Assembly: GCA_944320495.1 (NCBI GenBank)
Contig: CALUHR010000013.1
Span: 32,001-96,000 of the forward strand
Origin: Candidatus Methanomethylophilaceae archaeon
Lineage (GTDB): Archaea > Thermoplasmatota > Thermoplasmata > Methanomassiliicoccales > Methanomethylophilaceae
Length of the DNA stretch: 64,000 nt
Direction: 5' to 3'
The notes beneath the pieces are model-generated. The model was not told the origin of the DNA. It made no database searches and saw nothing but the letters and a program-made list of their open reading frames with translations. Made by a program: the position numbers and the translations under genes. Shown here piece by piece: positions 968 through 63,440 of this stretch. Each line of letters begins with the position of its first letter. Positions within the stretch are counted from its first letter, which is position 1.

Positions 968-1258
968 ATGGTGGTCAAATCGGTGCGCGGCAGACGCCGC
1001 TACACGGCGTTCGAGGTACCCTCCAACGCGGACAGGCACAGAGCGGAGACGGCCGTCTCCTCGGTGCGTTCGGCGAAGGTCGTCACCTGCGGCCACGGGT
1101 ACGCCGTGATCCGCTCGCTGCCGTCCGAGCGTGCTACCCTGGAGGACGCGATGTGTTCCGCGATACCCGGGAGCCGCCCGTTCGACTGCTCCGGGACCCT
1201 GAGGGCGCTGAGGACCAGGCACCCCCAGCTCGCCGCCCCGAGACGCAGAAGGAAGCGA
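968..1258 (+). CDS. rnp2: RNase P protein component Pop5/Rpp14 (ends at CGA)
   Basis: MVVKSVRGRRRYTAFEV...SGTLRALR motif; usual position directly upstream of psmA; first in-frame CGA at 1256-1258 after a basic tail RRRRK (standard ORF continues to 1306). Confidence 0.72.
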
Positions 1259-1340
1259 CGCGCACCCTGTGATGCACTGCCCAAACGCTTTATACGGCCC
1301 CTTTAATCAGGTCGCGTAAAGTAAAGGAGCAGGTCTTTTC

Positions 1341-2051
1341 ATGCAACCCGGACAGATGGCTTATGACAGGGGGAGCACGGTGTTCTCCCCCGACGGAAGA
1401 CTTTTCCAGGTGGAGTATGCCCGTGAGGCCGTGAAGAAGGGTTCCACGACCATCGGGATCAAGTACGACGATGGGGTGATGCTCATCGTCGACAGGAGGG
1501 TCTCGAGCAAGCTCCTGGAACCCAAATCCACGGAGAAGATCCACGAGATCGACGACTACATCGGATGCGCGACCTCCGGGCTCGTTGCGGACGCGAGGAT
1601 CCTCGTGGACGAGGCCAGGAAGCAGGCCCAGATCCACAGGGTCAACTACGGCGAGAACATCGGGGTCGAGATGCTCGTCAAGAAGATCTGCGACTACGAG
1701 CAGAACTTCACCCAGTACGGCGGGGTCCGCCCCTTCGGAACGGCCCTGCTCGTCGCCGGCACCGACGACCTCGGCGCCCACCTCTTCGAGACCGACCCGT
1801 CCGGAGCCCTCGTCGCGTACAAGGCGACGGGCATCGGCAACGGACGCCCGGCGGTCATGGACCTGTTCGAGAAGGAATTCGAGGACGGCATGACCTTCGA
1901 GAAGGCCGCACTGCTCGGCCTCAAGGCCCTCGCGACCGCCGTGGAGGACAAGCCCAAGGCGGACTCCGTCGAGATCGGCGTCGCCGCGAACGGCCAGAAG
2001 TTCAGGAGGCTCTCCGAGGAGGAGGTCTCCGAGCTCATCGGCAAGATGTGA
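1341..2051 (+). CDS. psmA: Proteasome alpha subunit
   Basis: YDRGSTVFSPDGRLFQVEYAREAVKKG signature. Confidence 0.98.
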   Translation: MQPGQMAYDRGSTVFSPDGRLFQVEYAREAVKKGSTTIGIKYDDGVMLIVDRRVSSKLLEPKSTEKIHEIDDYIGCATSGLVADARILVDEARKQAQIHRVNYGENIGVEMLVKKICDYEQNFTQYGGVRPFGTALLVAGTDDLGAHLFETDPSGALVAYKATGIGNGRPAVMDLFEKEFEDGMTFEKAALLGLKALATAVEDKPKADSVEIGVAANGQKFRRLSEEEVSELIGKM

Positions 2052-2064
2052 GAAGGCCGGTAGG

Positions 2065-2763
2065 ATGGTTAACCTAGACGACGCCATAACCGCCCGCCTC
2101 GAGAGCCACGGGGAGACCTTCGAGATCCTGCTGGACCCGAAGGTGGTCGACCTCATCAAGGCCGGCAAGCAGTTCGACATAGTCGAGTACATGGCTGTCG
2201 AGGACGTCTTCAAGAACGCCTCCAAGGGCACCAGGCCCCCGGAGGACAAGGTGAAGGAGGCCTTCGGGACCACCGAGATCGCCGACATCGCGAGGAGGAT
2301 CCTGGAGAAGGGCGAGGTGCAGATGACCGCCGAGCAGCGCAAGGAGATGCTCGAGGCCAAGAGGCACCAGGTCGTGGCGTACATCGCCGCGAACGCCATC
2401 AACCCCCAGACCCACACCCCCCATCCCCCGTCCAGGATCGAGATGGCGCTGGAGGAGGCCAAGTTCCACGTGGACCTCTTCAAGCCCCTGGACAAGGAGA
2501 TCGAGGAGGCCATGAAGCTCCTGCGCCCCCTCATCCCGATCAGGTTCGAGAGGAGCAGGATCGCCATCAAGCTCAAGGGCACGGACTACGGACGCTGCTA
2601 CGACGACCTGATATCGTACGGCATCGTCGACAGGGAGGTCTGGACGCCCGAGGGGGACTGGATCGGCAGCATGGAGATCCCCGCGGGGGTCATCACCGAG
2701 CTCACGGAGAAGCTGAAGCACAAGACCCGCGGAAGCGCCTCGGTGAAGCTCGTCAACGAATGA
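2065..2763 (+). CDS. sdo1: Ribosome maturation factor SBDS/Sdo1
   Basis: ARLESHGETFEILLDP...INPQTHTPHPPSRIE; superoperon position. Confidence 0.96.
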   Translation: MVNLDDAITARLESHGETFEILLDPKVVDLIKAGKQFDIVEYMAVEDVFKNASKGTRPPEDKVKEAFGTTEIADIARRILEKGEVQMTAEQRKEMLEAKRHQVVAYIAANAINPQTHTPHPPSRIEMALEEAKFHVDLFKPLDKEIEEAMKLLRPLIPIRFERSRIAIKLKGTDYGRCYDDLISYGIVDREVWTPEGDWIGSMEIPAGVITELTEKLKHKTRGSASVKLVNE

Positions 2764-2782
2764 TATTCAAAGAGTGATACGA

Positions 2783-3490: not shown

Positions 3491-3492
3491 CA

Positions 3493-5000: not shown

Positions 5001-5006
5001 TCCCAC

Positions 5007-5258: not shown

Positions 5259-5265
5259 GGCCACG

Positions 5266-5397: not shown

Positions 5398-5400
5398 GCG

Positions 5401-6831: not shown

Positions 6832-8156
6832 GCCACATGACATCCATCATCAGGAAGGAGGTCAGGGAGATGCTGACCCCGGGCTCCGTCATATCCGTGC
6901 TCGTGATGGTCATCATATTCGCGGGCATGGGAGGACTCATCGGCACGGAGGTCGACAAGGCGGCAGAGCTGCCGAGCTTCGGCCTCGTGGCCGAGGAAGG
7001 CGACTACCTGGAAGGCTGGGACCTCATCGGCACCCTCCAGGGATACTACGGCGACGAGTCCGACAAGATCGTCATCATGGACGCCGCCTACGGGGATGAC
7101 GAGGCGATCATGGCCGAGATGGAATCTCGCGGCATCGCCAACGTCCTCGCGTTCCCGGACAAATCGACCTTCGAGGCATGCATAGCCGGTTCGGAGCAGA
7201 TCACCGTAGAGCAGTACTACCTCTACGAGCCCACCGGCATGTTCGGCACCATATCGTCAACTGTCATGTCCTCGATCGTCTCACTCGTCGAGGGCAGCCT
7301 CACGCAGGAGCTCATATCCCTCTCCGGGGACGGCGGAGCGAACATCAACTACATCATGGACCCGATGTACACCGGCGGGGACTCGGTCAGCACCGTCATC
7401 GACGGAGTGGCCCACTCCGGGGTCACCCCCTCGGACATCGACACCGAGATCTCCAGCCAGACCATGATGATCCCGCTGGTCATCATGATCATCATCATGA
7501 TGGTCGGGAGCATCGTCATCAGCTCCATCGGTTCGGAGAAGGAGAACAAGACCCTGGAGACGCTCCTCACCATGCCGATCAAGAGGACGTCCATCGTCAG
7601 CGGGAAGATCGCCGCGGCAGCCATCGTGGGACTCGTCTACGGCCTCGCCTACATGGTCGGCATGAGCATCTACATGGGTGCGATGACGGGCGTCGTCGGC
7701 TCCGGCCAGGGAACCGACCTGGAGAGCCTCGGGCTGGCGCTCGACGTGGGAGACTGGGCCCTCGTGATGGTGTCCATGTTCCTGTCCATCGTCTGCGCCC
7801 TGGGCATCTGCATGATCCTGGGTGCCTTCGCCAAGAACTACAAGTCCGCCCAGACCATGACCCTGCCCATCAGTATCCTGGCCATGATCCCGATGTTCGT
7901 GATCATGTTCTCCGGATGGTACGGATGCGGAGGGTTCCTTCAGGCGATCCTGTTCGTCATCCCGTTCTCGCACCCGATGATGGCCATGCAGGCCCTCATG
8001 TACGGGGACATCACCCTGGTGCTCGGCGGGATCGGGTACATGGCCGTGTTCGCCATCGTGACCATACTGATCACGGTGAGGATGTACAACTCCGACATCC
8101 TCATCACCGGCCTGGGCCAGAACAAGTGGGTCCAGACCCTCACCGGGAGGAAGCGA
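6828..8156 (+). CDS. ABC-2 type permease, NatB-like (ends at CGA)
   Basis: SIGSEKENKTLETLLTMPIKR motif and TM helices; in-frame CGA at 8154-8156, one base before the TTG start of the next gene. Confidence 0.88.
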
Positions 8157-10255: not shown

Positions 10256-10310
10256 TTCAATCGGCGCCCAATCTCAGATTAGATAAAAATGGATGTCGAT
10301 ACGGGAGGAC

Positions 10311-10871
10311 ATGGAGCTTCGCAGACTCAGGGAGAGCTTCTTGGAGGGGCCGTCCGTCGACCGCGACGGCTATGAATACTTCGTCAACCCGCTCTCCGAC
10401 GGCCTCCCCCGCGTGGACAGGGAGCTGCTGGACGAGGCGGTGTCAGGCATCCTGGAGGTCGCGGAGCTGGACTGCGATGTGATCCTCGCCCCGGAGGCCA
10501 TGGCCCTGCCGATAGCCGCTGGGATCACACTGAGGACCGGCATCCCCTATCTGGCGATACGCAAGCGCCCGTACGGGCTCCCCGGCGAGATCTCGTTCGG
10601 GAAGCGCACAGGGTACTCCGAATCGATGATGCACGTCTCGACGCTGAGACCGGGCGAGAGGGTGGCGATCGTGGACGACGTCCTCGACACGGGCGGGACT
10701 GCGAGGGCCACCGTGGACGCGCTCCGCGGGGCTGGGATCGTCGTCACGGAGATCGTGGCCGTATTCGACCGCAATCCCGACAGCGACGCCCTGTCCGCCG
10801 AGCTCGGGGTGCCCATCAGGACGCTGCTGAGGGTGGGCGTCGAGGACGGAGGGCTCATCGTCAGGGATCGA
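10311..10871 (+). CDS. hpt: Purine phosphoribosyltransferase, Hpt/Apt-like (ends at CGA)
   Basis: YEYFVNPLSDG and AIVDDVLDTGGT PRPP-binding motif; in-frame CGA at 10869-10871 after LIVRD; the standard ORF would overlap the next gene. Confidence 0.85.
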
Positions 10872-10948: not shown

Positions 10949-12217
10949 ATGGACCCCTCCCTGCTGGCAGTATGTCTCGCGATGTCCGCGGTCGGATGCG
11001 CACTGGGCCTGTTCAGCGGCCTCGTCCCAGGGATACACGTCAACACGCTGGCGGCTATGCTGCTGACCGCATACCCTGCCCTAGAGGCCGCGCTGCCGCT
11101 GGGAGAGACGGAGGCGGCCGTCGCCGTGGGATGCTGCGTGATGGCGGCCTCCGTGGTCCATTCCTTCGTAGACTTCGTGCCCTCGGTCTTCATAGGGGCG
11201 CCGGATGCGGAGGACGCCGTCTCAGTGCTCCCCGGACACCGTCTGCTCCTGGCCGGGAGGGGCATGGAGGCCGTCCGTGCGGCGGCCGTCGGAAGCCTGG
11301 TCGGATGCTCCGCCTCGCTGCTGCTGGCACTTCCCCTCCAATGGGCCCTCATTCACGGTGCGGAGGGACTGCTGGACCTCCTGACGCCTGCTGTGCTTAT
11401 GCTGGCGTGCGCTGTCCTGCTCTCGTCCGAGTGGCGCAGAGGGAACGGCCTGTGGGGTCCCGCCCTGATGCTCCTCTCCGGAACCCTCGGGCTGGGCTGT
11501 ATGGTGCTGCCGATACCCATGGACGGCGTGCTGGGGGAGGGGAGCGTCATGATGCCCCTCCTCACCGGGCTGTTCGGGGTGCCCGTGCTGCTGGAGACCG
11601 GCAGGGCATCCAAGATACCTCCGCAGAAGGACATCGTCTCGGATCCCGTGGGGGTGCGCCCGGGGCTCCGCGGCGTCCTGATGGGGGCCGTCGCCGGATG
11701 GTTCCCCGGGATCACGTCCACCGTCGGGGCATCGATGTCCGCCGCGGTGCTGCCCGAGAGGGGCCCGGCGAGATTCATCTCCACGGTCGCCTCGATAGGC
11801 ACCGTCACGTCTGTGCTGGCACTTGTCACCCTGTCCGTCTCGGGGAACGGCAGGTCGGGGACCGCCCTGGTCATCGGGGACATATTGGAGGGGTCCCTCG
11901 GCGGGTTCGCCTCGGGTCCGTTCCTGATGCTGCTGCTATCCGCGGCGGTGGCATCGCTCGCGGGATACTGGCTCACGATAGCCAGCGGAAAACTTCTGTC
12001 CCGCACCGTCGGCAGGATCGACCCACTGAGGCTCAGCAGGGCGATGCTGGCTCTCCTGACGGCGCTGACGTTCGCCCTGAACGGCCCGGCTAGCCTGCTG
12101 GTCCTCGTCTCAGCCACGGCCGTCGGGCTGCTGCCCGGGATGTGCGGCACCGGGAGGGTCATCCTCTGCGGAAGCCTGATACTCCCGGTGCTCGCGTTCA
12201 AGCTGGGTCTCGCCCGA
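10949..12217 (+). CDS. Tripartite tricarboxylate transporter TctA/DUF112-like membrane protein (ends at CGA)
   Basis: GLVPGIHVN, FVDFVPSVFIGAPD, VLPGHRLLLAGRG; CGA at 12215-12217 abuts the stop of the convergent thioesterase. Confidence 0.82.
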
Positions 12218-18675: not shown

Positions 18676-19014
18676 TCGCACCAGGCGCGAGCGGACCATG
18701 TCCTGATAGGCCGCGCCCCAGAGGTCCAGCTCCTCCAGGACCGGGAGGACGGACATGCCGACGCTCGTAAGCGAGTACTCGACGCGCTGGGGCGAGTCGC
18801 AGACCACAGTGCGACTGATCAGACCGTCGGACTCCAACTCCCTCAGGGTTATCGTGAGCATGCGCGACGACCCCTCCCCAGTGAACCGCTTGAGCTCGTT
18901 GAAGCGCATCCGCCCATGGGAGGACAGCATCCACAGGACGAGGATCTTGTGCTTGCCGCCGAGGAGCCTTATCGTGGTGGCGAACGGGGTCTCCCCCTCG
19001 GGTATCGGGTCCAT
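18676..19014 (-). CDS. HxlR-family winged-helix regulator (ends at CGA)
   Basis: LLGGKHK...RFNELKR...MLT..LRELE.DGLI.R...PQRVEYSLT; in-frame CGA at 18678-18676 gives 112 aa. Confidence 0.85.
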
Positions 19015-20199: not shown

Positions 20200-20418
20200 A
20201 TGGCCAAGACAACGATCAAGATCGAGGGAATGATGTGCGAGGGCTGCGTGAAGAGCGTCAGAGAGTCCCTCGAGAAGGTGCCCGGCGTCAAGAGCGTCGA
20301 TGTCAACCTGAAGAAGGGCACGGCCGTTGTCCAACAGGACGGCGTGGCCGACGAGGCCCTGATCAAGGCGGTCGTCGACGCGGGCTTCCGCGGAACCGTT
20401 AAGCACGGGCTCTTCCGA
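20200..20418 (+). CDS. copZ: Copper chaperone / HMA domain protein (ends at CGA overlapping copA ATG)
   Basis: GMMCEGCV metal-binding motif; TTC CGA TG junction. Confidence 0.88.
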
Positions 20419-25413: not shown

Positions 25414-25580
25414 GCTCACGCATGAGGCGCTGCGCATCATGCGGGCGCTATTCTCTTGAGGCGGTCTGCCCCGCATGCGGGGCGGCCACCTCCTGTCCGA
25501 TCCCACCTAAGTATTCTCCAGACGACCGTCTCGGCAAGTACCGCCGCCAGCAGGTCATCGAGTCATGGAAGAGGGAGCGA
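25410..25580 (+). CDS. nop10: H/ACA RNP protein Nop10 (ends at CGA)
   Basis: C..CG.YSL...CP.CG....P.PPKYSPDD..GKYRR following eif2a; CGA at 25578-25580 gives 56 aa versus 333 aa in the standard-code ORF. Confidence 0.92.
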
Positions 25581-26141
25581 TCGCTCCCTGTCGTCGTACA
25601 TCACCCTGTACTCCGAAGAGGTGTACAGCGGCGAGAACCAGGCGTACTTGAACCAGCTCCACAGGGACAGCTCGTCCTCCATCATGGGCATGTAGTACCT
25701 GCGTATGGGCGCCCAGAACATCACGGCGATCACGGCGAGAGCGAAGGGCGTCACCAGAAACGGGTTCATGACCACCAGCGACGAGGCCGAGAGCGGATCG
25801 TTCCCGTACCAGGCGATCAGATTGAAGATCACCAGGAGCATCGCGGCGCGTACCGCCTTCTTCCACGCCTTCGGCCTGCGGGACGACACGACGAGCAGGG
25901 AATCCATCGTCACGAGCATCATCGCCATGTCCACCAGGAAGGTGGCGATCGACACGAACTGGTTTCCATAGCCCTCGTTCATGCCCATCGCAAGGACGGC
26001 CAGCTTGGTCAGGTAGATGGCGACGATGATGACAAGGAAAGACTGCGCCACCTTGAGGACGAACGGACGCGCTCCCCTGTGGAAGAGCCCCTCCGCCGTC
26101 TCGGACGGCGACCAGCTCGAATCCTCCCGGAATCTGGGCAT
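25581..26141 (-). CDS. Hypothetical membrane protein (ends at CGA)
   Basis: About four hydrophobic segments; in-frame CGA at 25583-25581, back-to-back with the nop10 CGA. Confidence 0.65.
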
Positions 26142-32660: not shown

Positions 32661-33032
32661 TCGGTCGTCCCACTCGGCGAAGAGTCTGGCTATGCCCTTC
32701 TTGGCCACGGACCAGCAGGGGACTCCGCCGATGAGGACGGCCACCTTGATGGCCTCCAGGATCTCCTCCTTGGTGGCCCCGTAGTTCTTGGCCACCCTCG
32801 CCTGGGCGTAGACGCAGTCCTCGCACATCCTTACCGCGACGCACGAGAGCGCCATCAGCCTCTTGGTCTTCCTGTCGATGGCCCCGTCCTCGACCATGAC
32901 CCTGTCCATCGTGTGCAGGGTGTCGATGAAGGACGGATCCAGCTCCCTGATCGCCTTCAGCGTGTCTGGCGCGAACCCGCCCATGCCGCTGCACATCTGC
33001 CCGAACTTGTCTCCTCCGCATTCCTGGGACAT
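32661..33032 (-). CDS. Carboxymuconolactone decarboxylase/AhpD-like protein (ends at CGA)
   Basis: GAIDRKTKRLMAL..VAVRMCEDC...GATKEEILEAI; CGA at 32663-32661, TGA two codons later. Confidence 0.85.
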
Positions 33033-37350: not shown

Positions 37351-38132
37351 GCACCGCCAGAGAGCTCATGGCCTCCGCGGGAGTCGTCCCGAAGAAGAGC
37401 AAGGGGCAGAATTTTCTGATTGACGACCGCGTGGCGGACCGCATCGTCGGCTACGCCGGCATCACGCCCTCCGACAGGGTGCTGGAGATCGGCCCCGGGT
37501 TCGGCGTCCTCACAGATAGGCTCGCCGGCATGGGATCGAGCCTCACGTGCATCGAACTTGATACCAAGCTCGCATCCTACATCAGATCGACCTACGGCGA
37601 CCGCCTCACGCTCATCGAGGGCGACGCGGTCAAGGTCCCCTTCCCGGAGTTCGACGTCCTCGTCAGCAACCTGCCGTACAGCGTCTCGACCCCCATCATC
37701 TTCAAGCTCCTGGACCGCCCGTTCAGACGCGCCGTCGTCATGGTCCAGAAGGAGTTCGCCGACCGCATGGTCGCGGACGTCGGCAGCCCCGAGTACTCGA
37801 GGCTCACCGTCAACCTGTTCTACCGCGCCGAGTGCGAGATACTCGAACCCGTCCCCGCGTCCAGGTTCGACCCCAGGCCCAAGGTTGACTCCGCCGTAGT
37901 CGGCATAACGCCGAGACCCGCGCCGTTCGAGGTCCTCGACGAGCGCACGTTCTTCAAGGTGACCGAGGCCTGCTTCAACCAGCGCAGGAAGAAGATCGGC
38001 ACCGCCCTCAGGAACTACCGTCTGGTGGAGTCGTCCGAGAACATACCCTACAGGGACGACCGCATAGAGGACCTCCGTCCGGTGGAGATCGCCGAGATCG
38101 CTGACGCGGTGTTCCTGACCAGCAGACAGCGA
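37347..38132 (+). CDS. ksgA: 16S rRNA dimethyladenosine transferase (ends at CGA)
   Basis: GQNFL, LEIGPG.G, SNLPY, QKEFA, F.P.PKVDS; in-frame CGA at 38130-38132. Confidence 0.95.
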
Positions 38133-38919: not shown

Positions 38920-39346
38920 CATCCTGGCCGTGGCCCGCATGCTCCGCATCGCGGGGCGCGAGGTCACGAGACGCCGCGACGCCCATGCCGCCAGCCTCGG
39001 GCTGACATCGTCCCAGGCGGATGCGCTCACGTTCATCCGCGAGCATCCGGGATGCATGATCGCCGACCTCGGGGCCTATTCAGGCTCCTCGCACCAGGCG
39101 GCCAGGACCCTCGTCGAGAGGCTGCGGGAGAGGGGACTGGTCGAGGTCTCCGTATCGGACAGGGACGCCCGCGCAAGGGTCCTCGAGATAACCCCCCGCG
39201 GAATACTCCTGCACGACAGGTTCCTCGCCATGGGCGCGGAGTCCTTCGGCAACATCAGGGAATCCTTCGACGAGGGCGAGGTCAGGGACCTCAGGGACAC
39301 CTTGGAGAGGTTGATGGCGCTCCTCGGTCTGGAGAGGACGGTCCGA
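38903..39346 (+). CDS. MarR-family regulator (ends at CGA)
   Basis: LT.SQ...L.FI, LV.RL.ERGLV......DAR...L..TP.G; CGA at 39344-39346; start uncertain. Confidence 0.78.
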
Positions 39347-39368: not shown

Positions 39369-39950
39369 ATGTCATCGAACATGGATCTCGAGAGGTTCAG
39401 AGAGCTGATGGCGAGGGACGGAAGGATCGTCTTCCCCTCCGAGGACGTAGGCGCGTTCTTGAACGAGGCGGCCGACAGGTCCCGCCGCATCACCATGGAC
39501 CTCAACACCGAATACCACACGATGGAGGAGATCCGCTCCATCATGTCGGAGCTCATATGCGAGCCCGTGGGCGAGGGGTTCAGATTGTTTCCTCCGTTCC
39601 ATGCGGACTTCGGCATGAACATCCACATCGGAAGGGACGTGTTCATCAACGAGGGGTGCTGCTTCCAGGACCAGGGAGGAATCTGGATAGGCGACGGATC
39701 GATGATAGGTCAGCAGGTCGTCATGGCCACCCTCGACCACGACCTGGACCCGGAGCACAGATATGACATGTTCCCGGGGCCGATTCACATCGGCAGGAAC
39801 GTCTGGGTCGGTGCCCATGCGACGATACTCAGGAACGTGACCATAGGCGACGGGGCCGTCGTGGCGGCCGGTGCGGTGGTCACGAGGGATGTCCCGCCGA
39901 ACACGGTCGTCGCCGGGGTGCCAGCGAAAGTCGTGAAGACCGTGGATCGA
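39369..39950 (+). CDS. Sugar O-acetyltransferase, maltose/galactoside LbH family (ends at CGA)
   Basis: PPFHADFG.NI..G..VFIN, hexapeptide repeats, GAVVT.DVP...VVAGVPAKVVK; CGA at 39948-39950. Confidence 0.92.
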
Positions 39951-41221: not shown

Positions 41222-43633
41222 ATGGAAACCGCGGAGATCAGGATAATCAGCACGTCGTCCGCCACCCTGGATGAGGAGCCCGTAGTAGAGATCTACGGCA
41301 AGGCCAGGGACGGCAGGTCCGTGACCGTCCTGGTCCGCGGGTTCCATCCGTACCTCTACGGGGTGGAGGTCCCGGAGAAGCTGGAGCGCCAGCTCTCCGA
41401 GGACCCCGAGGTCGTCTCGGTCGAGCACCATCCCCTCCTCTTCAGGGGGAGGAACGTCGATGCGCTGAGGATCACGATCAAGAGTCCCTGGAAGGTCTCA
41501 GACATGCGCAGCAGGCTCCGCGCCAACGGCGTCGAGTCCCTCGCATCCGACATCCCGTTCAACCACCGCTACATCTACGACCAGGACATGGGCGCCTGCA
41601 TCCGCGTGACGGGCGAGCCCGTGGACCGCGGGTACTTCACCGACCTGACGATCGAGCTGTCCTCGTTCGAGAACGTGGACCCCTTCGACCCCGGCCTGAA
41701 GACGCTGTCCTTCGACATCGAGAACAGCGTCGAGCACGATTTCCTGTACTGCATCTGCTCCGTGGTCCATGAGAACGGGACCATGCGGGCCTGCGACCCC
41801 ATCTACGGCACCGAGCCGCAGATCATCCAGGCCTTCTCCGACCTCATCAGGAGGGAGGACCCGGACGTCATCACCGGGTACAACATCGAGAACTACGACA
41901 TCCGCAAGATCGAGGAGCGCGCCAAGGCCAATCGCATGAAGGATGCGATGCCCTGGGGCCGCGACGGCAGCCAGCCGAGGCTGCGCAACGACCGCTTCTG
42001 GCGGGTGAGAGGGCGCATCGTGTGCGACGCCTGGTGGGCCGCCCGCAGAGAGCTCCATCCCAAGCAGGAGACCCTCAACGCGGTCTCCAAGGAGCTCCTC
42101 GGAGAGACCAAGCTGGACGTCGACCCCCGCCACATGGACCAGGAGTGGAGGGACAACCGCGCGAAGGTCCTCGAGTACTGCACCAAGGACGCGGAGCTGG
42201 CACTGCGCATCCTGAACGAGGTGGAGACGGTCCGCAAGGGTATGGACCTGGCGGCGGTGTCGAAGCTGTCGGTGGAAGACGTCCTCTCGTCCGGATCCTC
42301 GCAGCTCGCCGACTCGCTGCTCATCCGCGCGGCGGACCGCGCGAACGTCGCCGTCCCCCAGATGGGCAAGCGCACCAGGGACGACGAGCAGATCGAGGGG
42401 GGATACGTGCACGACATCAAACCGGGACTGTACCACTGGGTCTGCGTCCTGGACTTCAAGTCCATGTACCCGTCCACCATCATCGCCAAGAACATCTGCT
42501 TCACCACGCTCTCCCCCGACGGGGAGATCGTCGCCCCGTCAGGCACAAGGTTCCTCTCCAAGGAGAAGCGCCTCGGGCTCCTGCCGATGATCCTCCAGGG
42601 CCTCATGGACCAAAGGGATTCTATCAAGAGGCAGATGAAGCAGACGACGGACGAGCACGAGCGCAGATACCTGGACGGACTGCAGGCGGCCGTCAAGGTG
42701 CTGATGAACACATTCTACGGGGTGTTCGCCTCATCCTTCTACAGGTTCACGGACAAGAGCATCGGTGCCGCGATAACATCGTTCGCGCGTGCCAACGTCA
42801 AGGGCATCATCGGCGAGCTGCAGTCGGAGGGTCACCATGTGGTGTACTCGGACACCGACTCCGTCTTCGTCCAGTCGCCGAAGGACGACATGGACGGCGC
42901 CATAGGGTTCGGGACGGCGATGGCCGATCGCTACTCCCGGGACGGCGGCACGCTGGAGTTCGAGAAGATCCTCGAGCCCCTGTTCACCCACGGCAAGAAG
43001 AAGAGGTACGTCGGCCGCGTGGTATGGCCCGTGAGGCAGGAGGACCTGCTGGTGCGCGGATACGAGAGCAGGAGGACCGACTCCTTCGACCTCCAGGACC
43101 GCCTCCAGACAGAGATGTTCGCATGCATACTGGACGAGCGCAACGAAGACGCCCTGGCGCTTGCCAGGAAGGCGATCCAGGACACACTGGCCGGACGGGT
43201 GGACCCTTCGGACCTGGTGATATCCAAGACATGCAAGGGGCTAGATGCCTACGAGAACCCCGACCGCATGGCGAACGTCCAGGCGGCCAAGAAGATGATC
43301 GAGCTAGGGTACGACTTCATCCCGGGCATGAAGGTCTCGTGGATCGTCACCGACGCCAAGTCCGCCCCCATGAGGGTGGAGCCATACATCAGCGGTCCCC
43401 AGTTCACGGCGAAGCCCGACTACCGCTACTACGCGGAGCGTCTGGCGAAGATGGCCGGCATGGTCACAGATGTGCTTGGATGGGGCGAGAAGGACCTCAT
43501 GATGGGCAGCCAGCAGGCCACCCTCCTGGACGGCGGGATGTTCTCGTCCAAGGAGTCCGACGCCCCGCAGAGGGAGCCTCCGAAGGCCCCCAAGCCCAAG
43601 TCCAAGGTCCGGAGCCTTGACGAGTTCTTCCGA
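41222..43633 (+). CDS. polB: Family B DNA polymerase (ends at CGA)
   Basis: Exo motifs FDIE, YNIENYD, YCTKD; pol motifs DFKSMYPS, K.LMNTFYG, YSDTDS, KKRY; terminal SLDEFF then CGA 43631-43633 (803 aa). Confidence 0.97.
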
Positions 43634-44167
43634 TCGCGACGCGAGCCTCGGACGGAGCGTCTCCCCCATCATCCTCAGCGTGATATCCGCCATCTCCTCC
43701 GGAGGGTCGGACATGCCCCTGTCGAACCACAGAACGAACCATGCCATCATCCCGCCGAGATGGTACTCCATCCGGTACATGGACGGGACGTCGCCTCCGT
43801 CTGTCGGGAAGTGCTCCCTCAGAACGGGGAGGAGCATGGGCGTGAGACCGCGGGAATGCAGGACGATCATCTCGTCGCGCTTCGCGTAGAACGAGGAGAA
43901 TATCGTCCCGACGTACGCCTTGACGGTCTCCCATCCGTCCATTTCGCTCGCCGCCCTGCTGATAGGCCGCATCGCACCTTCGTAGATGTACGACACGACC
44001 TCGTCAACCGACCCGAACCTGCGGTAGAACGACGTGCGGTTCATGCCCGCCTCCCGGGTCAGCATGCTCACGGTGACCTCGTCGTAAGTATGGTCCCTCA
44101 GCAGCCTTACCAGGGACGAGGCGAGAGCATCCGAGGTCCCATCACGAATATGAGACATATTAGGCAT
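43634..44167 (-). CDS. TetR/AcrR-family regulator (ends at CGA)
   Basis: TVSMLTREAGMNRTSFYRRF HTH; CGA at 43636-43634 back-to-back with the polB CGA; start uncertain. Confidence 0.83.
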
Positions 44168-44702: not shown

Positions 44703-45005
44703 TCGGGCCTCTCCCAGACGTTCCATCATCTCGTTCACCCTATGACGCATGCGTGTGGCTGTGTTTATGGAGACCTCGCACTCCTCAGCGGTCTCCCTCA
44801 GAGTCGCACCCCGTGCGTGACACTCGACGAATATCGCCCACTTGTGCGCAGGAAGCTTGGTGCCTGCCATGACACCATTCCCGACGAACGTGCGTCCGCA
44901 CCCAGAGCATCTGAACCTCTGCGTTCCGCGAGACGTCCTGCCGAAGCGTACGTATTCTGTGCTCCCGCAGACCGGACATGATCCGTCAACCAGTGAAATC
45001 ATCAT
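44703..45005 (-). mobile_element. IS1/IS1595-type zinc-ribbon plus HTH protein (transposase N-terminal part, no DDE domain; ends at CGA)
   Basis: CPVCGS...RFG.T..G.QRF.C..CGRTF then ATLRETAEECEVSINTA.RMRHR; no catalytic domain or terminal inverted repeats seen. Confidence 0.6.
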
Positions 45006-45250: not shown

Positions 45251-45709
45251 ATGCTCGTACTGGACAGCTCCTACTTCTTCTCCTCCGACTCGCTCCCTGA
45301 CGAGGAGCACGTGTGCCCACCCGGCGTCATCCGCGAACTGGAGAACCACGGGGACCCCCGTCTGTCACTCTGGGGCGACATGGTCCGCGTGTCCGACTGC
45401 TCGAAGGGGTCCCTCAAGCGCGTCACAGAGGCCGCCCGCGGCAGCGGGGACCTGGGAAGGCTCTCCCCCGTCGACATGACCGTGCTGGCTCTCGCCCTGG
45501 ATGTGAACGGCACCATCCTCTCCGACGACTACTCCATCCAGAACGTGGCCAGGATACTCGGCATCCCGTTCAGGGCTGTCGGCACCGCCGGCATCAGGAA
45601 GGTCGCCAAGTGGAACTACCAGTGCATCGGCTGCCACAGGTGGTACAAGGAGAAGCTGCCGGAGTGCCCGGTGTGCGGATCGCCGATGCGGGCATGCAGG
45701 AAGAGGCGA
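45251..45709 (+). CDS. nob1: Nob1-like PIN endonuclease with C-terminal zinc ribbon (ends at CGA)
   Basis: VLDSS, LS..D..VLALA, SDDYSIQNVA..LGI, C.GC...CPVCGS; CGA 45707-45709 abuts the convergent TGA. Confidence 0.9.
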
Positions 45710-46798: not shown

Positions 46799-46803
46799 TG
46801 GAA

Positions 46804-53874: not shown

Positions 53875-54617
53875 CACAGCACCTCCTTCATGACGAGCGC
53901 GTCCTTCGGACAGTCGTCGATGCAGTTGCTGCAGCTGATGCACTTGACCTCGTCGATGACGGGGCGGAGGATCGGTTTGCCGGTCTTCTCGTTGGTTCCC
54001 TTCTCCACCATCTGGATGGCGTCGACGGGGCAGACCTTGGCGCACTTCTTGCAGCCGATGCACTTGGCGTCGGTCAGCTCCGGCCTGTCGAGACTGAACA
54101 CGGACACGCGCCTCTCGGCGTTGCCGTTGTCGATGTCCGACTGCAGAGTGACCTCCAGCTTGACCTTCATGCCCTCGGTGGTCTTGTCGTACGCGAGCCT
54201 GCGGGGTCCGTACAGCAGGTCGAACCTGGTGAACTCGGCGAGCTCGTACTCGGGGGTGACGGTCATGGCGTCGACGGGGCAGTACTCGGCGCAGTATCCG
54301 CACATGGCGCACCTGCCGAGGTTGACCTGAGGCCTCTTGACGGTCTTGCCGTCGGCGGCCTCTGAGTCGACGATCTTGATGCACGCGGTGGGGCACATGC
54401 GGGCGCACATGCCGCATCCGACGCATTTGTCGAAATCGAGTCCCGGGCGTCCGCGATAGTTGTCCGGCACCCACTCCTTCTCGTAGGGGTACAGGACGGT
54501 GACCGGCCTGTGGAAGACGGTCTTCGCGAAGAGCTTCAGGACGTGCCACTGGGGTTTGATGACCCAGAGTCCCCTCGCTGTGCTGCGGGGGTACTTTTCG
54601 AGATACTTCATAGCCAT
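53874..54617 (-). CDS. fpoI: Fpo-like complex subunit I with four [4Fe-4S] motifs
   Basis: YPYEK..P.NYRGR; CVGCGMCARMCP, CAMCGYCAEYCP, CIGCKKCAKVCP, CISCSNCIDDCP. Confidence 0.93.
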   Translation of the reverse strand: MAMKYLEKYPRSTARGLWVIKPQWHVLKLFAKTVFHRPVTVLYPYEKEWVPDNYRGRPGLDFDKCVGCGMCARMCPTACIKIVDSEAADGKTVKRPQVNLGRCAMCGYCAEYCPVDAMTVTPEYELAEFTRFDLLYGPRRLAYDKTTEGMKVKLEVTLQSDIDNGNAERRVSVFSLDRPELTDAKCIGCKKCAKVCPVDAIQMVEKGTNEKTGKPILRPVIDEVKCISCSNCIDDCPKDALVMKEVL

Positions 54618-55804
54618 CGGAAGAACCCTCCTACCTTGAGCAGCAGAACGACTGCCAGGTTGATCACGGACAGGGGCATGAAGACCTTCCATCCGATGTT
54701 GACGATCTGGTCGGGCCTGACACGTCCGAGGGCGGCCCTCACGAGGATCATGAGGAAGAACACGAACCAGGTCTTCAGCAGGAACACGATCTCGGGTATG
54801 GGGCCGTTTCCGATGATGGGGAGCGCCCATCCGCCGAGGTACATGATTGTGACCATGGCGCACGCGACGTAGCCTCTGAAGTAGTCGGCCAGCATGATGA
54901 GACCCCACTTCATTCCGGCGTACTCGGTCTGCCATCCCTCGACCAGCTCGGCCTCTGCCTCGGCGATATCGAAGGGCACACGCTCGGACTCCGCTGTGGC
55001 GCAGAAGAAGAACGTGATGAAACCGATGATCTGCGGGATGAAGTACCAGACGGTCTCGTACTGGGCGTCCACAATGTCGCCGATGTTGAAGCTGCCGGCG
55101 AGCAGGGCGGTGGTCGCGATCATGATGAGCATCGGGACCTCATAGGAGATCATCAGCTCGGCCGCACGCATACCTCCGATCATGGCGTACTTGTTGTTCT
55201 GGGACCATCCGGACACAAGGATGAAGAACGGGGCCAGGGCGAAGAACGCCATGATGATCAGGAGACCGGAATCGTAGTTGACGACGAACCATCTCTGGGA
55301 CAGAGGGATCATACAGGCGAGCAGGACGGAGACACCGATGACCAGGGACACAGTCCACATGTAGGTCATGTTGTCGACCTTCTTCGGGATGGTGTTCTCC
55401 TTCATGAAGGTCTTGAGACCGTCGGCAACGCACTGGAGGAATCCCTTCATTCCCACCATGGTTCCCCTTCTGTCCATCATCCTACCGAGGCACTTACGCT
55501 CCATCCATAGGGAGATGAGCGTACATACGAACACCACGATGAAGACGATGAGCATGAAGATTATCAGCGACAGGAGGACGCACACGGGCTCGCTCATGAG
55601 CCAGTCCGACACGGGGTTCTCCGGGAAGATCAGGTTGATGAGCCAGGCGAGGGCTCCTCCGATGATCTTCCAGAGGCCGTACGAGATGGCGAACGGCAGG
55701 TTGTAGACGTCCTCGAACGGGTAGTACGCGTTGTCCATCACGTACTGGCCGTTGAAGTCGATGAAATCCAGGATGCTTGTGTATTCCACTACCACGCTGA
55801 TCAC
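54617..55804 (-). CDS. fpoH: Fpo-like complex subunit H (ends at CGA overlapping fpoI ATG)
   Basis: ERK...R.G, ADGLK, GGMRAA...SYE, R.PFDIAEAE.ELV.G..TEY; start (GTG 55804 or 55795) uncertain. Confidence 0.93.
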
Positions 55805-57434: not shown

Positions 57435-57436
57435 TC

Positions 57437-58353: not shown

Positions 58354-58494
58354 TGGACGCGCGCACGGAGTTGCAGTATAAAATAACTAAGGAAGGCCAG
58401 CTTAAATTATATTTAAAAGAAAGAGGGGAGCGAGATAAGCCAGGACCCGGCGAATCGCCACACCTATTTAGTGGCACTGGGATGCCCATCCATC

Positions 58495-59304
58495 ATGACC
58501 GCACGCATCGGATTCATCGGCGCCGGGAAGATGGCCGAGGCCCTGATGGCCGGACTCCTGGCGAAGGGCGTATGCTCGAAGGACGACATCATCGCCTGCG
58601 CCCCCAGCGAGGGGACCAGGAGGCACATCTCGGAGACCTACGGGATCGCGATGTTCCAGACCGCCACCGAGGTGGTCTCCATGGTGGACGAGGTCGTCCT
58701 CGCCGTCAAGCCCGCGCAGGTCCGCACCGTGATGGTCGACGAGGGCGCCGCATCGGCCTTCAGGCCCGGGACCCTCCTCCTCAGCGTCGTCGCGGGGCTC
58801 ACCGTGAACGGCCTGAAATCATATGTGCCAGACGCAAAGATCGTGCGTGTCATGCCGAACCACTGCGTGGCCGTTCTGGAGGGCGCCATGGGCTACACCA
58901 CGGACGGCACGCTGACCCCCGAGGAGCTGAATGGAGTATCATCCATCCTGGGTTCCGTGGGCCTCGCCGTGCAGGTGCCCGAGGAGAAGATGGACGCCAT
59001 CACCGGCCTCGCCGGGAGCTCCCCCGCGTTCATATATCAGGTGATAGACGCGATGGCCGACGCTGGCGTGCTCAACGGCATCCCGAGGAGGGACGCCATA
59101 ACACTGGCCGCGCAGTCGGTGCTGGGGGCCGCCAAGATGGTTCTCGAGACCGGGAAGCACCCGGACCAGCTGAAGGACGAGGTCTGCTCCCCCGGCGGCA
59201 CCACCATCGAGGGCGTCCGCGCCGCGGAGGACATGGGACTCCGCTCCGCGATGATCGCCGCGGTGGATGCGGCGGTATCCAAGTCGAGGGAGATGAGCAG
59301 GCGA
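58495..59304 (+). CDS. proC: Pyrroline-5-carboxylate reductase (ends at CGA)
   Basis: FIGAGKMA, RVMPN, GSSPAF, VCSPGGTTI.G; CGA 59302-59304 gives 269 aa versus 455 aa in the ORF track. Confidence 0.95.
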
Positions 59305-61029
59305 TCGGCGCCTCAGGAACGACTTCGCGAGGCCCATGACCACCCTGGGACCGTTGGACCATATCGATCCGGCGTCCCAGTCCAGGTCCTTCTTGTTGGC
59401 GATGGTGGAGTTCATCATCCTGATGCCCTCCTCCTTCGTCTCCCACAGCTTCGCATCCCTCTCCCCCTGATCGGGGATGAGCATGATCTCGTCGATGCGG
59501 TGCATCAGCGAGCGGGCCTTCTCCGTGCGGTCGACCCTGTCGTCATAGACCTCCTTCGATGTGCGTCCCGCCTCGTGCTCGCATCTCGCGAGCTCGTTGG
59601 CCGCGTCGTAGGAGATCTCGGCGACGTCGTCCCTGGTCATCCACTTCGTCTCGTAGGACAGGACGTGCTTCCACGATGGGTTGTCCAGGAGCCTCCTGTG
59701 GTCCTCCAGCGTGTGGGCGCGGAGGGTGTATCCCCACTCGTCGGGATGCTCGAATATCCTGCTCCCGGGGTCGACGAAGGGCGCGAACGGGGCGTTGTAG
59801 ATGAACAGGTTGTCCTCCGGCCTGACCGAATCCCATAGCTTCTTGGAGGCTCTGGCACTGTTCATGGCGGACTCGCGGTCCTGGAACGGGAGACCGTTCA
59901 TGTAGAACAGGTCGAACCTGCTGCAACCGCATTCGAAGGCCGTCGGCACGGTGCGCTCGATGGCCTCGTTCGTATAGCCCTTCCCGAGCGCCGAGCGCAC
60001 GGCCTCGTCGTGGGAGTCGGGCGAGAACTCGATGGACCATCCGGCCTCCAGGGAGCGGTCGATCTCCGTGAAGTAGTCCGGTCCGGCGCCGTTGAAGAGC
60101 TCGATGACCACATGGTTCCTTATGCCGATCTCGCGGCACTCCCTGAGGAACCTGGTGGCGTAGTCGCGGCCGGCCTGCCTCAAGTCGCCCACGATGAACA
60201 CGGGAGTGTCAAGATAGGACTGAATGGACTCTATGTCCTGTGCGAGCCTCTCCGGGCTGCGGAACGCCGGCTTCCTCCTGCAGACGACGGTTCCGTTCGC
60301 GTAGTGGGAACCGCCGCACTCGGCGCAGTTGATGGAGCATCCGCGCACTGTGAACACGGAGGTCAGCGGGAGCCTGTCCCACCCGTACCACGGGAGGGCC
60401 CCTTTGATGTCCATGTTCCTGAGGACACCGCGGATCATCGTCCCGTAGTCGAACCTTATGGAATCCAGCGATTCCAGAGAATGGGACACGCCGTTGTCGT
60501 GCACCTTCCCCTCGGAGTCCTTCCAGACGAGGTTCGGCACCTCCGACAGGTCACCTCCCCTCTGCAGGACCTCCATCATCTTCACGGTCGGGACCTCGGT
60601 GGTGTCCCCGCACATGACCAGGTCCACCTCGGGACGGCGGATCAGCTCGTCCTTGAAGTAGGACGACGTGAGCCCCCCGAACTCGACCTTCGATTCGGGA
60701 TGGAGCCTCTTGACGATCTTCGCCAGCTCCAGCGCGCCGTGCGCGTGGGGCATCCAGTGGAGGTCTATGGCGAAGACGTCAGCATGGAGCTTGCGGATGC
60801 ATTCCTCGGCGTCGAAGCTGTCGCTCTGCAGCATCCGGACCGCGATGTTGACGATGCGGGTGCGGAAGCCTGCGGCCTCCAGCTCCGAGGAGATGGTCAT
60901 GAAGCCCACGGGGTACATCTCGAACACCGGGGACGACGGGATGACGTCGGACACCGGCCCGTAGAATATGGGCTTCTTGCGGAAATCGTAGACGCTGGGC
61001 GCATGCAGGAACACTATCTCCGTCTTCAA
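59305..61029 (-). CDS. B12-binding-domain radical SAM protein (MA_4551/TIGR04190-like; ends at CGA)
   Basis: FLHAPSVYDFR, PSSPVFEMYP.GF, DLHWMPHAHG, RGCSINCAECGG; CGA 59307-59305. Confidence 0.88.
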
Positions 61030-61033
61030 CCGA

Positions 61034-61819
61034 TCATCTCCCGAAGCGCCTGACGCGCTGCTGATAGGTGCGTATGGCCCTCAGCAGGTCTATGTGCCTG
61101 AATCCCGGCCAGTACACGTCCGTGAAGTATAGTTCGGAATAGGCGAGCTGCCAGAGCAGGAAGTTGGACACCCTGACCTCCCCGGACGTGCGGAGCACCA
61201 GGTCCGGGTCGGGCATCCCCGTGGTGGAGATGTACCCAGACACCGTGTCCTCGTCTATCTCGTCGACGGATATCTTCCCATCGACGGCGTCCTGGGCTAT
61301 CGCGCGGACGGCGTTGGCGATGTCCTGCCTCCCGCCGTAGGCGATGGCCATGTTGAGGAACCTCTCGTTGTATCCAGAGGTGCGCTCGTAGGCGTAGTCC
61401 ATCGCCTTGCGGACCTTCTCCGGAAGGAGATCCGTCTGGCCTATGACGCGGATGCCCACCATGTTGGCGTGCACGTCCTCGTCGTCGGCGAACTCGTACA
61501 GCGACTGCTCCAGCAGGTCCATGAGGTACTCGACCTCGTCCGAGTCCCGCTTGAAGTTCTCCATGGAGAACGCGTAGACGGTGAGGACCTTGATGTCCAG
61601 GTCCATGCACCAGTGGAGGACCTCCTCCAGCTTCTTACGGCCCAGCCTGTGGCCCTCGAGCGGCGGGCTGCCCAGCACCTCCTCGGCGTAGCGCCGGTTG
61701 CCGTCCATTATGATGGCTATGTGCTGGGGCATCTCCCCCGCACGCACCTCCTTCTCGAGCTGCGCGTCGTAGGTGGCATACGCCCTGTCTGTTAATATCC
61801 CCTTGAGGTCCATGCTCAT
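61034..61819 (-). CDS. uppS: cis-prenyltransferase (undecaprenyl diphosphate synthase family)
   Basis: HIAIIMDGNRR, YAFSMENF.R, YGGR, RTSGE.R.SNFLLWQ. Confidence 0.96.
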   Translation of the reverse strand: MSMDLKGILTDRAYATYDAQLEKEVRAGEMPQHIAIIMDGNRRYAEEVLGSPPLEGHRLGRKKLEEVLHWCMDLDIKVLTVYAFSMENFKRDSDEVEYLMDLLEQSLYEFADDEDVHANMVGIRVIGQTDLLPEKVRKAMDYAYERTSGYNERFLNMAIAYGGRQDIANAVRAIAQDAVDGKISVDEIDEDTVSGYISTTGMPDPDLVLRTSGEVRVSNFLLWQLAYSELYFTDVYWPGFRHIDLLRAIRTYQQRVRRFGR

Positions 61820-62763
61820 TCGAAGTCCTCGGGGATCCCCGCGGCCCTCTCGCCGATGTCGAAGCATCCTATGGCAGCGACGGCGCCGATGACGCCCTTG
61901 GTCCCGGTGACGCTGATGATCTGGACCCCGCACTCCTCGGCGACGCGGACGGCATCGTCCGTCGTGTACAGGACGGATTTGCAGGACCAGCCGTACTCCC
62001 TGAGGCGCTCCGGGATCTCCAGACCCTGGAACACTGTCAGGACCGCGTCCTCGGAGTAGCTCTCCTTGCGGACGAAGTCCACGGCGTACTCGATGAGCGC
62101 CGGGATCTCCTCCTCGCGCACGGCGAAGGAGACGGCGGTGGAGCAGCAGTTGGTGGTCTTGTTGGGGACCTTCGGGTTGAGCTGGATGATCTTGTGCTCC
62201 AGGAACCTCCCCACGGGGCAGGTGGTCCCGAGCTTGAGGGACACCACCCACGAGGCGCCGGCCTCCTTGGTGTCGGTGTCGTCGATGCCGATGATCACCC
62301 TGACCATCTTGGGCGTGATGATGTCCACGTGGGCGCGGTGCGCCCCTCCGATGGTGAAGTCGTCCGGATACTCGGTGCGGATCACATCGGGGCACTGCGG
62401 TATGCACGCGCCGATGCCGACGGAGGCGCCGGCTATGCCGTACCAGGTGGTGCGGACCTCGTCCCCCTCCACCTTCAGGGCGCTGAGCCCCTGGCCGCCC
62501 ACGTCGGAGGACACTGGGCCGAAGCTCAGCTCGCTCTCCCCGATGCGGGCGTTCATCACGAGCATGTCCGACTCCTGGCGGATATCCTCTATGACGCCCT
62601 TGGTGCGGCGCCTATTGACCAGGTCCCACTCGCCGGGGCCCTTGGAGGCGCATTTCTCGACGATCATGGCCTTGCCGGCCTTCTCGTCCACCAGGGTGTA
62701 GAACCCCCTGCAGAACAGAGGCCCGTACTTCGCGCGGACCTCGTCCGGTCTCAGCACGTACAT
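61816..62763 (-). CDS. Methanogenesis marker protein 11-like (DUF1743/TiaS-related)
   Basis: GPGEW...R, WYG.AGASVG...C, IGIDDTD, K.IQL.P.VP.KTTNC, G.IGA.AA.G. Confidence 0.75.
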   Translation of the reverse strand: MYVLRPDEVRAKYGPLFCRGFYTLVDEKAGKAMIVEKCASKGPGEWDLVNRRRTKGVIEDIRQESDMLVMNARIGESELSFGPVSSDVGGQGLSALKVEGDEVRTTWYGIAGASVGIGACIPQCPDVIRTEYPDDFTIGGAHRAHVDIITPKMVRVIIGIDDTDTKEAGASWVVSLKLGTTCPVGRFLEHKIIQLNPKVPNKTTNCCSTAVSFAVREEEIPALIEYAVDFVRKESYSEDAVLTVFQGLEIPERLREYGWSCKSVLYTTDDAVRVAEECGVQIISVTGTKGVIGAVAAIGCFDIGERAAGIPEDFE

Positions 62764-63440
62764 CGCTCGACCTCCTCGTCGTCATCGTCGACCGGACCGG
62801 TGTCCCAGTCCTCCGGGTCGGCGATGTCGATGGCGTCCGACGGGACGTGCTTGCAGAGGAACACAGTCCTGGCGGCCCTGCCGATGTCGGCGCCCATCTC
62901 GATGCAGACGCCGGTGTCTATGACCAGGATCTCGGGTTCGTCCATCCTGACGGACCCTGCGCGGACGGCGTCGCGGAACGACAGGGACAGATGGACCATG
63001 TTGCGGTCCGTCGGCGATATGCCGTCGCGGAGGATGTCCTCGGTCTCCTCGGGGGAGACGGGGTAGAACAGCTCCGGGGGTATGTCCTCGTTGTCCAGCT
63101 TGAGGTCCAGCGGGATGGTGTGGCCGTACGTGGCGCGGACCTTGCCGCCGGCGATGGAGTAGCGGCCCTTCGGGTCGGTCTCCACCAGGGCCTCGATGTG
63201 CCTCGGCCTCAGCCAGTTCATGTAGGTGTGGCGCCCCCTGATCAGGGCGACCACCTGCTGCATGGGCACCCAGCCCTGATCGTCCATGTCCGGCTCGAAC
63301 TTGCCGTGCCTAAGGATGGCGGCAAGCGTGCGTCCGATCCTCTCGACCTCCTTGTCAGAAAGGATGAACTTGCCCTCCTCCCCGCAGTGGGGACATCTCT
63401 CGTCACGGAAGTAGCCGTGTTCCTCGCATTCCCTTATCAT
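62763..63440 (-). CDS. kptA: RNA 2'-phosphotransferase Tpt1/KptA with N-terminal zinc ribbon (ends at CGA)
   Basis: C..HG.FR...CP.CG, ILRH, D.KGRY, RATYGH, HLS; CGA 62765-62763 overlaps the next ATG. Confidence 0.9.

Follow-up and report, generated by a model that had tools for sequence, protein, structure and literature searches.

About a quarter of the genes in a 64,000-nt window of a chicken-gut archaeal genome end at CGA, a sense codon for arginine. The window (positions 32,001-96,000 of contig CALUHR010000013.1, C13 of assembly G000, forward strand) comes from a Methanomethylophilaceae archaeon (order Methanomassiliicoccales) known as a metagenome-assembled genome (MAG) of 1.77 Mb in 14 contigs, with 62% GC and CheckM-type estimates of 90.6% completeness and 1.8% contamination. 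We propose that CGA is probably a leaky fourth stop beside TGA and TAA, at which the release factor would compete with a weakened tRNA-Arg(UCG). That translation ends at CGA, the core claim of a first-pass annotation of the window, is supported by the loss of coding signal at CGA, the ends of Pfam matches, the stop positions of relatives and the loss of conservation between strains. For termination at CGA the sequence support is thus good; that aRF1 acts at CGA, that the tRNA is defective and that aRF1 is under feedback is what we infer.

CGA at gene ends in the window and across the genome

Window genes were called with four stops, CGA being added to the standard three, and a filter on third-position GC content (GC3). 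Of the resulting 68 genes, 49 end at TGA, 18 (26%) at CGA and one at TAA. The first-pass annotation had placed 21 in-frame CGA codons at gene ends, about 28% of some 74 ends; all 21 are where it put them (its numbers for minus-strand genes give the first base of the codon), and its proportion is fair against ours. Its tail lengths are also right: read as arginine, CGA lengthens the nop10 product from 56 to 333 amino acids, pus10 from 408 to 622, polB from 803 to 1009, the acetyltransferase from 193 to 625 and TctA from 422 to 626. Its further remark that genes lack internal in-frame CGA holds for the 68 window genes, and for the genome as a strong depletion in the middle of open reading frames (ORFs).

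Fifteen of the 21 codons are informative, in that the standard-code frame runs 12 to 431 codons beyond them (Table 1). At the other six (copZ, CMD, fpoH, kptA, the membrane-protein gene and MarR) a standard stop follows 0-5 codons on, and each says little alone. In the informative genes GC3 falls from 0.82-0.97 to ~0.4-0.6 exactly at CGA; the exception is the IS-like ORF, a weak case in which no such drop marks the gene end. The polB gene runs for 803 codons without CGA at a GC3 of ~0.9, and beyond its CGA the GC3 is ~0.55 and eight more CGAs follow; nop10, pus10, the acetyltransferase, TctA and proC show a like pattern. Pfam models finish shortly before CGA, often at the last model position, and there are zero Pfam matches in the tails, which have no coding periodicity, are dense in CGA and overlap real genes in other frames.

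Table 1 In-frame CGA codons at gene ends in the window. Tail, codons from CGA to the next standard stop; CGA aa, amino-acid position of CGA; GC3, values before/after CGA. Pfam entries give the matched part of the model, where available, and the amino acids (aa) at which matches lie or end.
Gene	Coding part	CGA	Strand	Tail	CGA aa	Pfam	GC3	Remarks
pop5-like ORF	890-1255	1256..1258	+	15		no match	0.88/0.47	pop5 label putative, for want of a Pfam match
ABC-2 permease	6828-8153	8154..8156	+	67	443	ABC2_membrane_3, 346/347 of model, ends aa 417	0.97/0.42	
hpt-like phosphoribosyltransferase	10293-10868	10869..10871	+	64	193	Pribosyltran, ends aa 161		tail enters next gene in another frame
TctA-family transporter	10949-12214	12215..12217	+	203	423	TctA, 1-419/423, ends aa 404		adjoins TGA of convergent gene 12218-12604, within CGATCA
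HxlR regulator	19014-18679	18676..18678	-	63	113	HxlR, 1-88/91, ends aa 105		
copZ		20416..20418	+	0				last codon, TGA directly after (CGATGA); proteins differ by one residue between the two codes; uninformative
nop10	25410-25577	25578..25580	+	276	57	Nop10p, 1-47/52	/0.38	14 further CGAs in tail; palindrome CGATCG in common with convergent membrane-protein gene
Membrane-protein gene	26141-25584	25581..25583	-	5			0.95/	weak alone
CMD-family gene	33032-32664	32661..32663	-	1	124	CMD, ends aa 106		uninformative alone
pus10	34926-36149	36150..36152	+	213	409	Pus10_C, 1-232/232, ends aa 404		17 CGAs in tail
ksgA/RsmA	37347-38129	38130..38132	+	12	262	RrnaAD, ends aa 246	0.85/0.42	
MarR regulator	38903-39343	39344..39346	+	5	148	MarR_2, ends aa 91		
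Hexapeptide acetyltransferase	39369-39947	39948..39950	+	431	194	Hexapep, ends aa 173		32 CGAs in tail, which runs across next gene
polB	41222-43630	43631..43633	+	205				CGATCG in common with convergent TetR gene
TetR regulator	44212-43637	43634..43636	-	109	193	TetR_N and TetR_C_8, within aa 35-182		
IS-like InsA-type ORF	45065-44706	44703..44705	-	76		Zn_ribbon_InsA and HTH, within aa 29-112	0.68/0.70	weak case
nob1-like PIN gene	45251-45706	45707..45709	+	360	153	PIN_6, aa 2-84	0.95/0.40	adjoins TGA of convergent gene 45710-46807, within CGATCA
fpoH/nuoH	55804-54620	54617..54619	-	2	396	NADHdh, 3-297/298, ends aa 386		uninformative alone
proC	58471-59301	59302..59304	+	177	278	P5CR_dimer, 1-105/105, ends aa 275		CGATCG in common with convergent radical SAM gene
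B12-binding radical SAM	61029-59308	59305..59307	-	121	575	domains within aa 34-389	0.93/0.60	
kptA/Tpt1	63440-62766	62763..62765	-	3	226	PTS_2-RNA, 4-176/177, ends aa 197		weak alone

Genome-wide, the terminators of 1664 high-GC3 ORFs were TGA (1060), CGA (375, ~22%), TAG (167, almost all short) and TAA (62). Among the 417 ORFs of at least 400 codons they were TGA (319), CGA (81), TAA (16) and TAG (1). When long high-GC3 frames were taken from stop to stop and divided into tenths, in-frame CGA was found 541 times in the first tenth, 160 times in the last and 4-19 times in each of the middle tenths, making CGA the most centre-depleted of all 61 sense codons. Out of frame it is among the commonest trinucleotides, with 3577 occurrences on both strands of the window. 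This distribution is far beyond chance. Ranking codons by the loss of long ORFs once each was added to the stop set was uninformative for CGA, since a genome this rich in GC abounds in long antisense shadow ORFs.

Only five CGAs in the genome are flanked on each side by 60 coding-like codons: three are same-frame junctions between genes, one lies inside the aRF1 gene and one in a GmhA-GmhB fusion. The last two are the only demonstrably internal CGAs in the genome, and each is CGA throughout the five genus genomes; the other candidates that we considered were mostly antisense shadow frames or same-frame junctions of two genes. One in-frame CGA (C5:178733-178735) separates a soluble part from two predicted membrane helices in an ORF without a Pfam match, and could be a third internal CGA or a two-gene junction.

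In-frame backup stops were not enriched after CGA (median distance 29 codons, against 27 after TGA), so termination appears as final at CGA as at TGA. The base next to a terminator CGA is most often T (54%, against 29% after TGA), and the base after that T is preferably G or C.

Several convergent gene pairs in the window have abutting stops. At 25578-25583, 43631-43636 and 59302-59307 the junction is CGATCG, with CGA on both strands, and at 12215-12220 and 45707-45712 it is CGATCA, with CGA on one strand and TGA on the other. TCG directly follows CGA in 54 of the 375 CGA terminators genome-wide. TAG ends no window gene and just the one ORF of at least 400 codons already listed; near-absence or recoding of TAG stops is reported for pyrrolysine-using Methanomassiliicoccales, and the scarcity here fits that pattern.

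Stop positions and CGA usage in relatives

A search with aRF1 returned as nearest records SI.A92.metabat-bins.58, UBA480 and 'Candidatus Methanoprimaticola sp. MG2', the first of which is an independent assembly of a close strain with 97% nucleotide identity. The MG2 record carries a RefSeq-style accession and a coverage of 420x, and may therefore stem from a culture. Near-identical sequence is present in chicken-gut and bird metagenome runs from nine studies, and Logan contigs of chicken-gut runs from other studies match this genome. A consensus error, which the first-pass annotation had named among the findings that would refute its claim, is not what these data indicate: the same CGAs stand in the independent assembly and in many MAGs of unrelated projects. 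At 39948, 44703 and 45707 the CGAs are reproduced without a mismatch in DNA contigs from another study. Over the acetyltransferase CGA (39948-39950) both DNA contig X1 and RNA-library contig X16 record 20 are letter-perfect, and DNA contig X1 record 6 is identical over the nob1-like CGA; X1 record 2 starts at 39342, two bases ahead of the MarR CGA, and was not counted as bridging it. The RNA contigs X15 and X16 cover only parts of the stretch. At the other covered CGA sites there was no C>T or G>A among the differences listed, which come from contigs and not reads. We also considered and rejected a motif-linked miscall of the methylation or nanopore type that turns TGATCA into CGATCG. With 614 copies of TGATCA (TGATC, 2702; CGATCG, 692) the motif is not depleted, so there is no motif-wide T-to-C miscall, and the in-frame specificity of CGA could not come about that way.

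Homologous stops fall at the same residue. PolB in 29 family genomes ends ...SLD[DE]FF directly followed by TGA or TAA; here and in one congeneric genome the codon after FF is CGA. The genes for aRF1 and its neighbour, which have TGA as their stop here, have CGA in UBA480, and CGA ends at exact positions were also seen in G052 and G042. The read-through PolB of this contig, at 1009 aa, is listed in a public protein collection, in a 90%-identity cluster whose members range from 851 to 1009 aa. An 896-aa cluster member from another strain has ~97% identity up to ...SLDEFF-R-S, after which all similarity is lost; selection on the PolB protein therefore stops at CGA. More generally, tails vary in length and sequence between strains that are 94-97% identical.

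To place CGA usage in the family, we aligned the proteins of this genome onto ~40 kb of sequence per genome from 56 members of the family. Twenty-eight genomes from nine genera (GC 42% to 62%) form a CGA-free group, with at most 0.2 internal CGAs per 1000 aligned codons and, outside aRF1, 8 internal CGAs in 225,467 codons. The other 28 sampled genomes use CGA at 1.4 per 1000 codons, mostly at Arg columns. Among 54,120 aligned codons from the four other genomes of this genus in the sample, 3 are CGA. CGA at an exact homologous stop with a real tail was found mainly in this genus, where four other species have 0 to 10% of their sampled ends at CGA and this one has 22-26%, and single likely cases were found in three other CGA-free genera. 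CGA thus disappeared from genes earlier, and in more genera, than it came into heavy use as a terminator.

One genome of the survey, G038 (genus g9), shows an abrupt switch of its main arginine codon: it has CGG 157 times and AGG 6 times in 4310 aligned codons, whereas its four sisters have AGG 67-144 times and CGG 7-13 times.

Internal CGA codons, aRF1 and tRNA-Arg(UCG)

The genome encodes one aRF1 and one Pelota. The aRF1 gene (C2:85936-87165, minus strand) has an in-frame CGA at C2:86932-86934, codon 78, which corresponds to the conserved Arg of the RLK segment that follows NIKS, inside the eRF1_1 domain match. The frame runs straight through this codon and the protein is conserved on both sides. 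Codon 78 is CGA in 39 of 39 close relatives and is the sole CGA of the gene in each, and in the same 39 genes other conserved Arg columns mix AGG, AGA, CGC and CGT. The presence of CGA in aRF1 was examined across 80 genomes and then across the 56. All 28 CGA-free genomes have at least one CGA in aRF1, amounting to 31 in 11,480 codons, 76 times the rate elsewhere in these genomes; 6 of the 28 CGA-using genomes have an aRF1 gene without it. The position differs by genus (78, 25, 50, 123, 11, 9 or 99), and this shifting argues for repeated selection. Conservation of synonymous sites around codon 78 gave no sign of an extended RNA structure; what stood out was confined to GCT and AAA, the rare codons on either side.

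A feedback loop may explain this codon. Abundant aRF1 would halt its own synthesis at codon 78, and scarce aRF1 would let the tRNA read through. In bacteria, prfB, which encodes RF2, is autoregulated by an in-frame UGA and a +1 frameshift, which takes place at a slippery site with an SD-like stimulator upstream, an arrangement conserved across many species. If aRF1 reads CGA, and only then, the likeness is that a release-factor gene carries an early, conserved in-frame codon that its own factor would read. The differences are that read-through here would be by a cognate tRNA at a conserved Arg, with no frameshift, that the factor is an archaeal aRF1, and that the codon moves between genera. 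We therefore regard the aRF1 codon as a presumed analogue of prfB autoregulation and not a member of that system.

The second internal site lies in a GmhA-GmhB fusion (C13:193621-194718, minus strand), where CGA stands in the linker between the two domains in 5 of 5 genus genomes. In nine fetched genomes of other genera the linker codon is AAG or AAA (Lys) and the frame is open through the linker. There is no start codon between the CGA and the catalytic DxD of GmhB, so GmhB would be made only if the linker CGA is decoded. Termination at CGA, as claimed in the first-pass annotation, is thus supported, but a pure stop, as it was framed there, missed these two conserved in-frame CGAs that are read as a residue.

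The genome has tRNA-Arg genes with the anticodons UCU, CCU, CCG, GCG and UCG. The first-pass annotation had supposed that tRNA-Arg(UCG) was lost; it is present here, and each of the four other genomes sampled from the genus has it too. The tRNA (gene at C13:413317-413390, plus strand) folds as a cloverleaf whose anticodon stem is mismatched at its base (A31.A39) and whose loop is UUUCGGC, with an unusual U32 and C38. In ARAGORN drawings the other four Arg tRNAs of this genome have five-pair anticodon stems, the GCG one with an internal T.T. The four other genus genomes have C31.A39, so that the pair is mismatched in 5 of 5 genus genomes, whereas in ten tRNA-Arg(UCG) genes from nine other genera positions 31 and 39 are paired and the loop is the usual CUUCGGA or CUUCGAA. 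The gene also diverges unusually fast within the genus, at 83-85% identity.

When CGA enters the ribosomal A site, aRF1 would compete with tRNA-Arg(UCG). The genus tRNA may be weakened by its mismatched 31-39 pair, which would leave a 4-bp anticodon stem, and termination would for that reason usually win. The tRNA may have been kept because the two conserved in-frame CGAs still need to be read as arginine. A tRNA-Trp(CCA) with a 4-bp anticodon stem reads UGA in Blastocrithidia and ciliates, as cited in PMC13092985. The two cases would share a shortened or weakened anticodon stem tied to a shift in the balance between tRNA and release factor; there the short stem lets the tRNA read a stop, whereas here the mismatch would make a sense codon lose.

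The first-pass annotation had also suggested an aRF1 that accepts YGA. Compared with solved aRF1/eRF1 structures, the NIKS and YxCxxxF motifs are intact and the first Gly of the GTS-loop equivalent is Ser in this genome. With both motifs kept and no N-domain residue that sets CGA-free genomes apart from CGA-using relatives, the change may exist but is unsupported in the form proposed.

The history that we envisage is one in which CGA would first have been lost from the genes of a wider set of genera and later captured as a stop, after which T-to-C changes of TGA stops would have accumulated, above all in this species.

Alternative readings and significance

The standard code could be kept if CGA were a very rare Arg codon, with the extensions real or the genes mis-called, or if CGA were a consensus error for TGA. 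A tRNA-Arg(UCG) does exist, CGA is read as a residue at two sites and the six window tails of five codons or fewer fit either code. Against this, the tails lack periodicity and Pfam families, are CGA-dense and overlap real genes; they differ between strains that are nearly identical, and relatives stop at the same residue. The same CGAs recur in independent assemblies and runs, and TGATCA is not depleted. Sequence evidence already contradicts this explanation, and we give it next to no chance. Editing of the mRNA from C to U, by which the ribosome would meet an ordinary UGA at genomic CGA, would also drive CGA from gene interiors and fit an unchanged aRF1, and the preference for T after terminator CGA could be the context of an editing site. 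This alternative, which the first-pass annotation had left standing, is disfavoured by the absence of U at the acetyltransferase CGA in the one RNA-library contig (X16 record 20), which equals the DNA at 39948-39950, a weak point since it comes from contigs and DNA carry-over is possible. The retained tRNA and the CGA in aRF1 are also more simply explained by competition at the ribosome, and we know of no C-to-U mRNA editing in archaea. We consider editing very improbable.

The main rival, which we hold to be unlikely, is that CGA is unassigned or nearly undecodable. Ribosomes would stall with an empty A site and be cleared by Pelota and ABCE1, followed by peptidyl-tRNA hydrolysis, giving the same protein ends without aRF1 recognising CGA. 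The unchanged decoding motifs of aRF1, the structurally weakened cognate tRNA of the genus and the presence of Pelota all agree with it, as does its loss from the genes of genera in which it seldom serves as a terminator, as if it had been unassigned first. On this account, however, a quarter of all genes, including polB, fpoH, nop10 and pelota itself, would depend on slow rescue, and the CGA kept in aRF1 by 28 of 28 CGA-free genomes at shifting positions would be purposeless if aRF1 plays no part. The absence of enriched backup stops after CGA also counts against it. The Pelota gene (C1:20926-23502) ends ...ILRYRL-CGA and is followed in the same frame by a gene resembling homocitrate or isopropylmalate synthases; translation table 11 fuses both into an 858-aa frame.

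Several observations weigh against a leaky stop read by aRF1. Termination at CGA is deduced from sequence alone. The aRF1 motifs are unchanged, which leaves the acceptance of a first-position C unexplained, and no column of the aRF1 N-domain tells the CGA-free and CGA-using genomes apart; the one position of aRF1 that does is 164, which lies in the middle domain. CGA is not an absolute stop, given the two sites (aRF1 Arg78 and the GmhA-GmhB linker) that need it as a residue, and we found no context rule separating these from terminators: the internal sites have C or G next, as do 39% of terminators. Several CGA-free genera have a normally paired tRNA-Arg(UCG), so the tRNA defect was not the first cause of CGA loss, and other species of the genus share the mismatch although CGA ends just 0-10% of their sampled genes. 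Because the family genomes are related, cross-genome counts overstate independence. With these points in mind we still favour the leaky stop. A fuller version seems to us about as apt to be right as wrong: that CGA would be a true fourth stop read by aRF1 in at least nine Methanomethylophilaceae genera, lost there from every gene but that for aRF1, in which one in-frame CGA decoded by the retained tRNA-Arg(UCG) would form a feedback loop, with a second programmed read-through in this genus setting the ratio of GmhA to the GmhA-GmhB fusion.

Sense codons have become stops in organelles (NCBI tables 2, 22 and 23): AGA/AGG in vertebrate mitochondria, UCA in Scenedesmus obliquus and UUA in Thraustochytrium aureum mitochondria. 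As here, a sense codon (in vertebrates also an arginine codon) has gone from gene interiors and stands at gene ends. The organelle genomes are tiny, carrying about a dozen genes and a reduced set of tRNAs, whereas this is a cellular genome of the free-living type, of 1.8 Mb, with ~375 CGA-ended genes, a retained tRNA and two conserved read-through sites. We know of no cellular (non-organelle) genome in which the conversion of a sense codon into a stop is established.

Our literature search found no description of CGA as a stop in archaea, Methanomassiliicoccales or Methanomethylophilus. The nearest report is the KACI preprint (bioRxiv 10.64898/2026.04.02.715157), in which two hydrothermal-vent archaeal assemblies read CGG as Trp and have no CGA in conserved domains; its author raises a CGA stop as speculation, with a method that cannot infer stops. 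The vent assemblies share with this genome that they are archaeal and that CGA is absent from recognised domains. They differ in lineage and habitat, in their ~50% GC, in the reassigned CGG and in the failure to find tRNA(UCG). This genome still has CGG in use as a codon and does encode the tRNA, and CGA as a stop was tested at homologous gene ends. An archaeal code in which all TAG is read as pyrrolysine (Kivenson et al., bioRxiv 10.1101/2024.09.30.615893), described with no mention of CGA, likewise involves archaeal stop codons, but as a stop-to-sense change of TAG; here TAG ends almost no long genes.

Should CGA prove to be a stop, a sense-to-stop code change would be on record in a cellular genome for the first time; if the aRF1 feedback loop is also real, so would autoregulation of a release factor through read-through of a stop codon. 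Public annotation with table 11 is wrong for hundreds of proteins of these archaea: the public 1009-aa PolB is 206 junk residues longer than the real protein, and genes beneath false tails may be missed. The family supplies PylRS/tRNA-Pyl pairs widely used in genetic-code expansion, so a naturally freed codon there is of engineering interest. With the aRF1 codon, archaea would have their own equivalent of the feedback on RF2 in bacteria. Taken with the family survey, the change would be a natural codon capture ending in a stop, with the sister genera, which are CGA-free and have few or no CGA stops, as its living intermediates.

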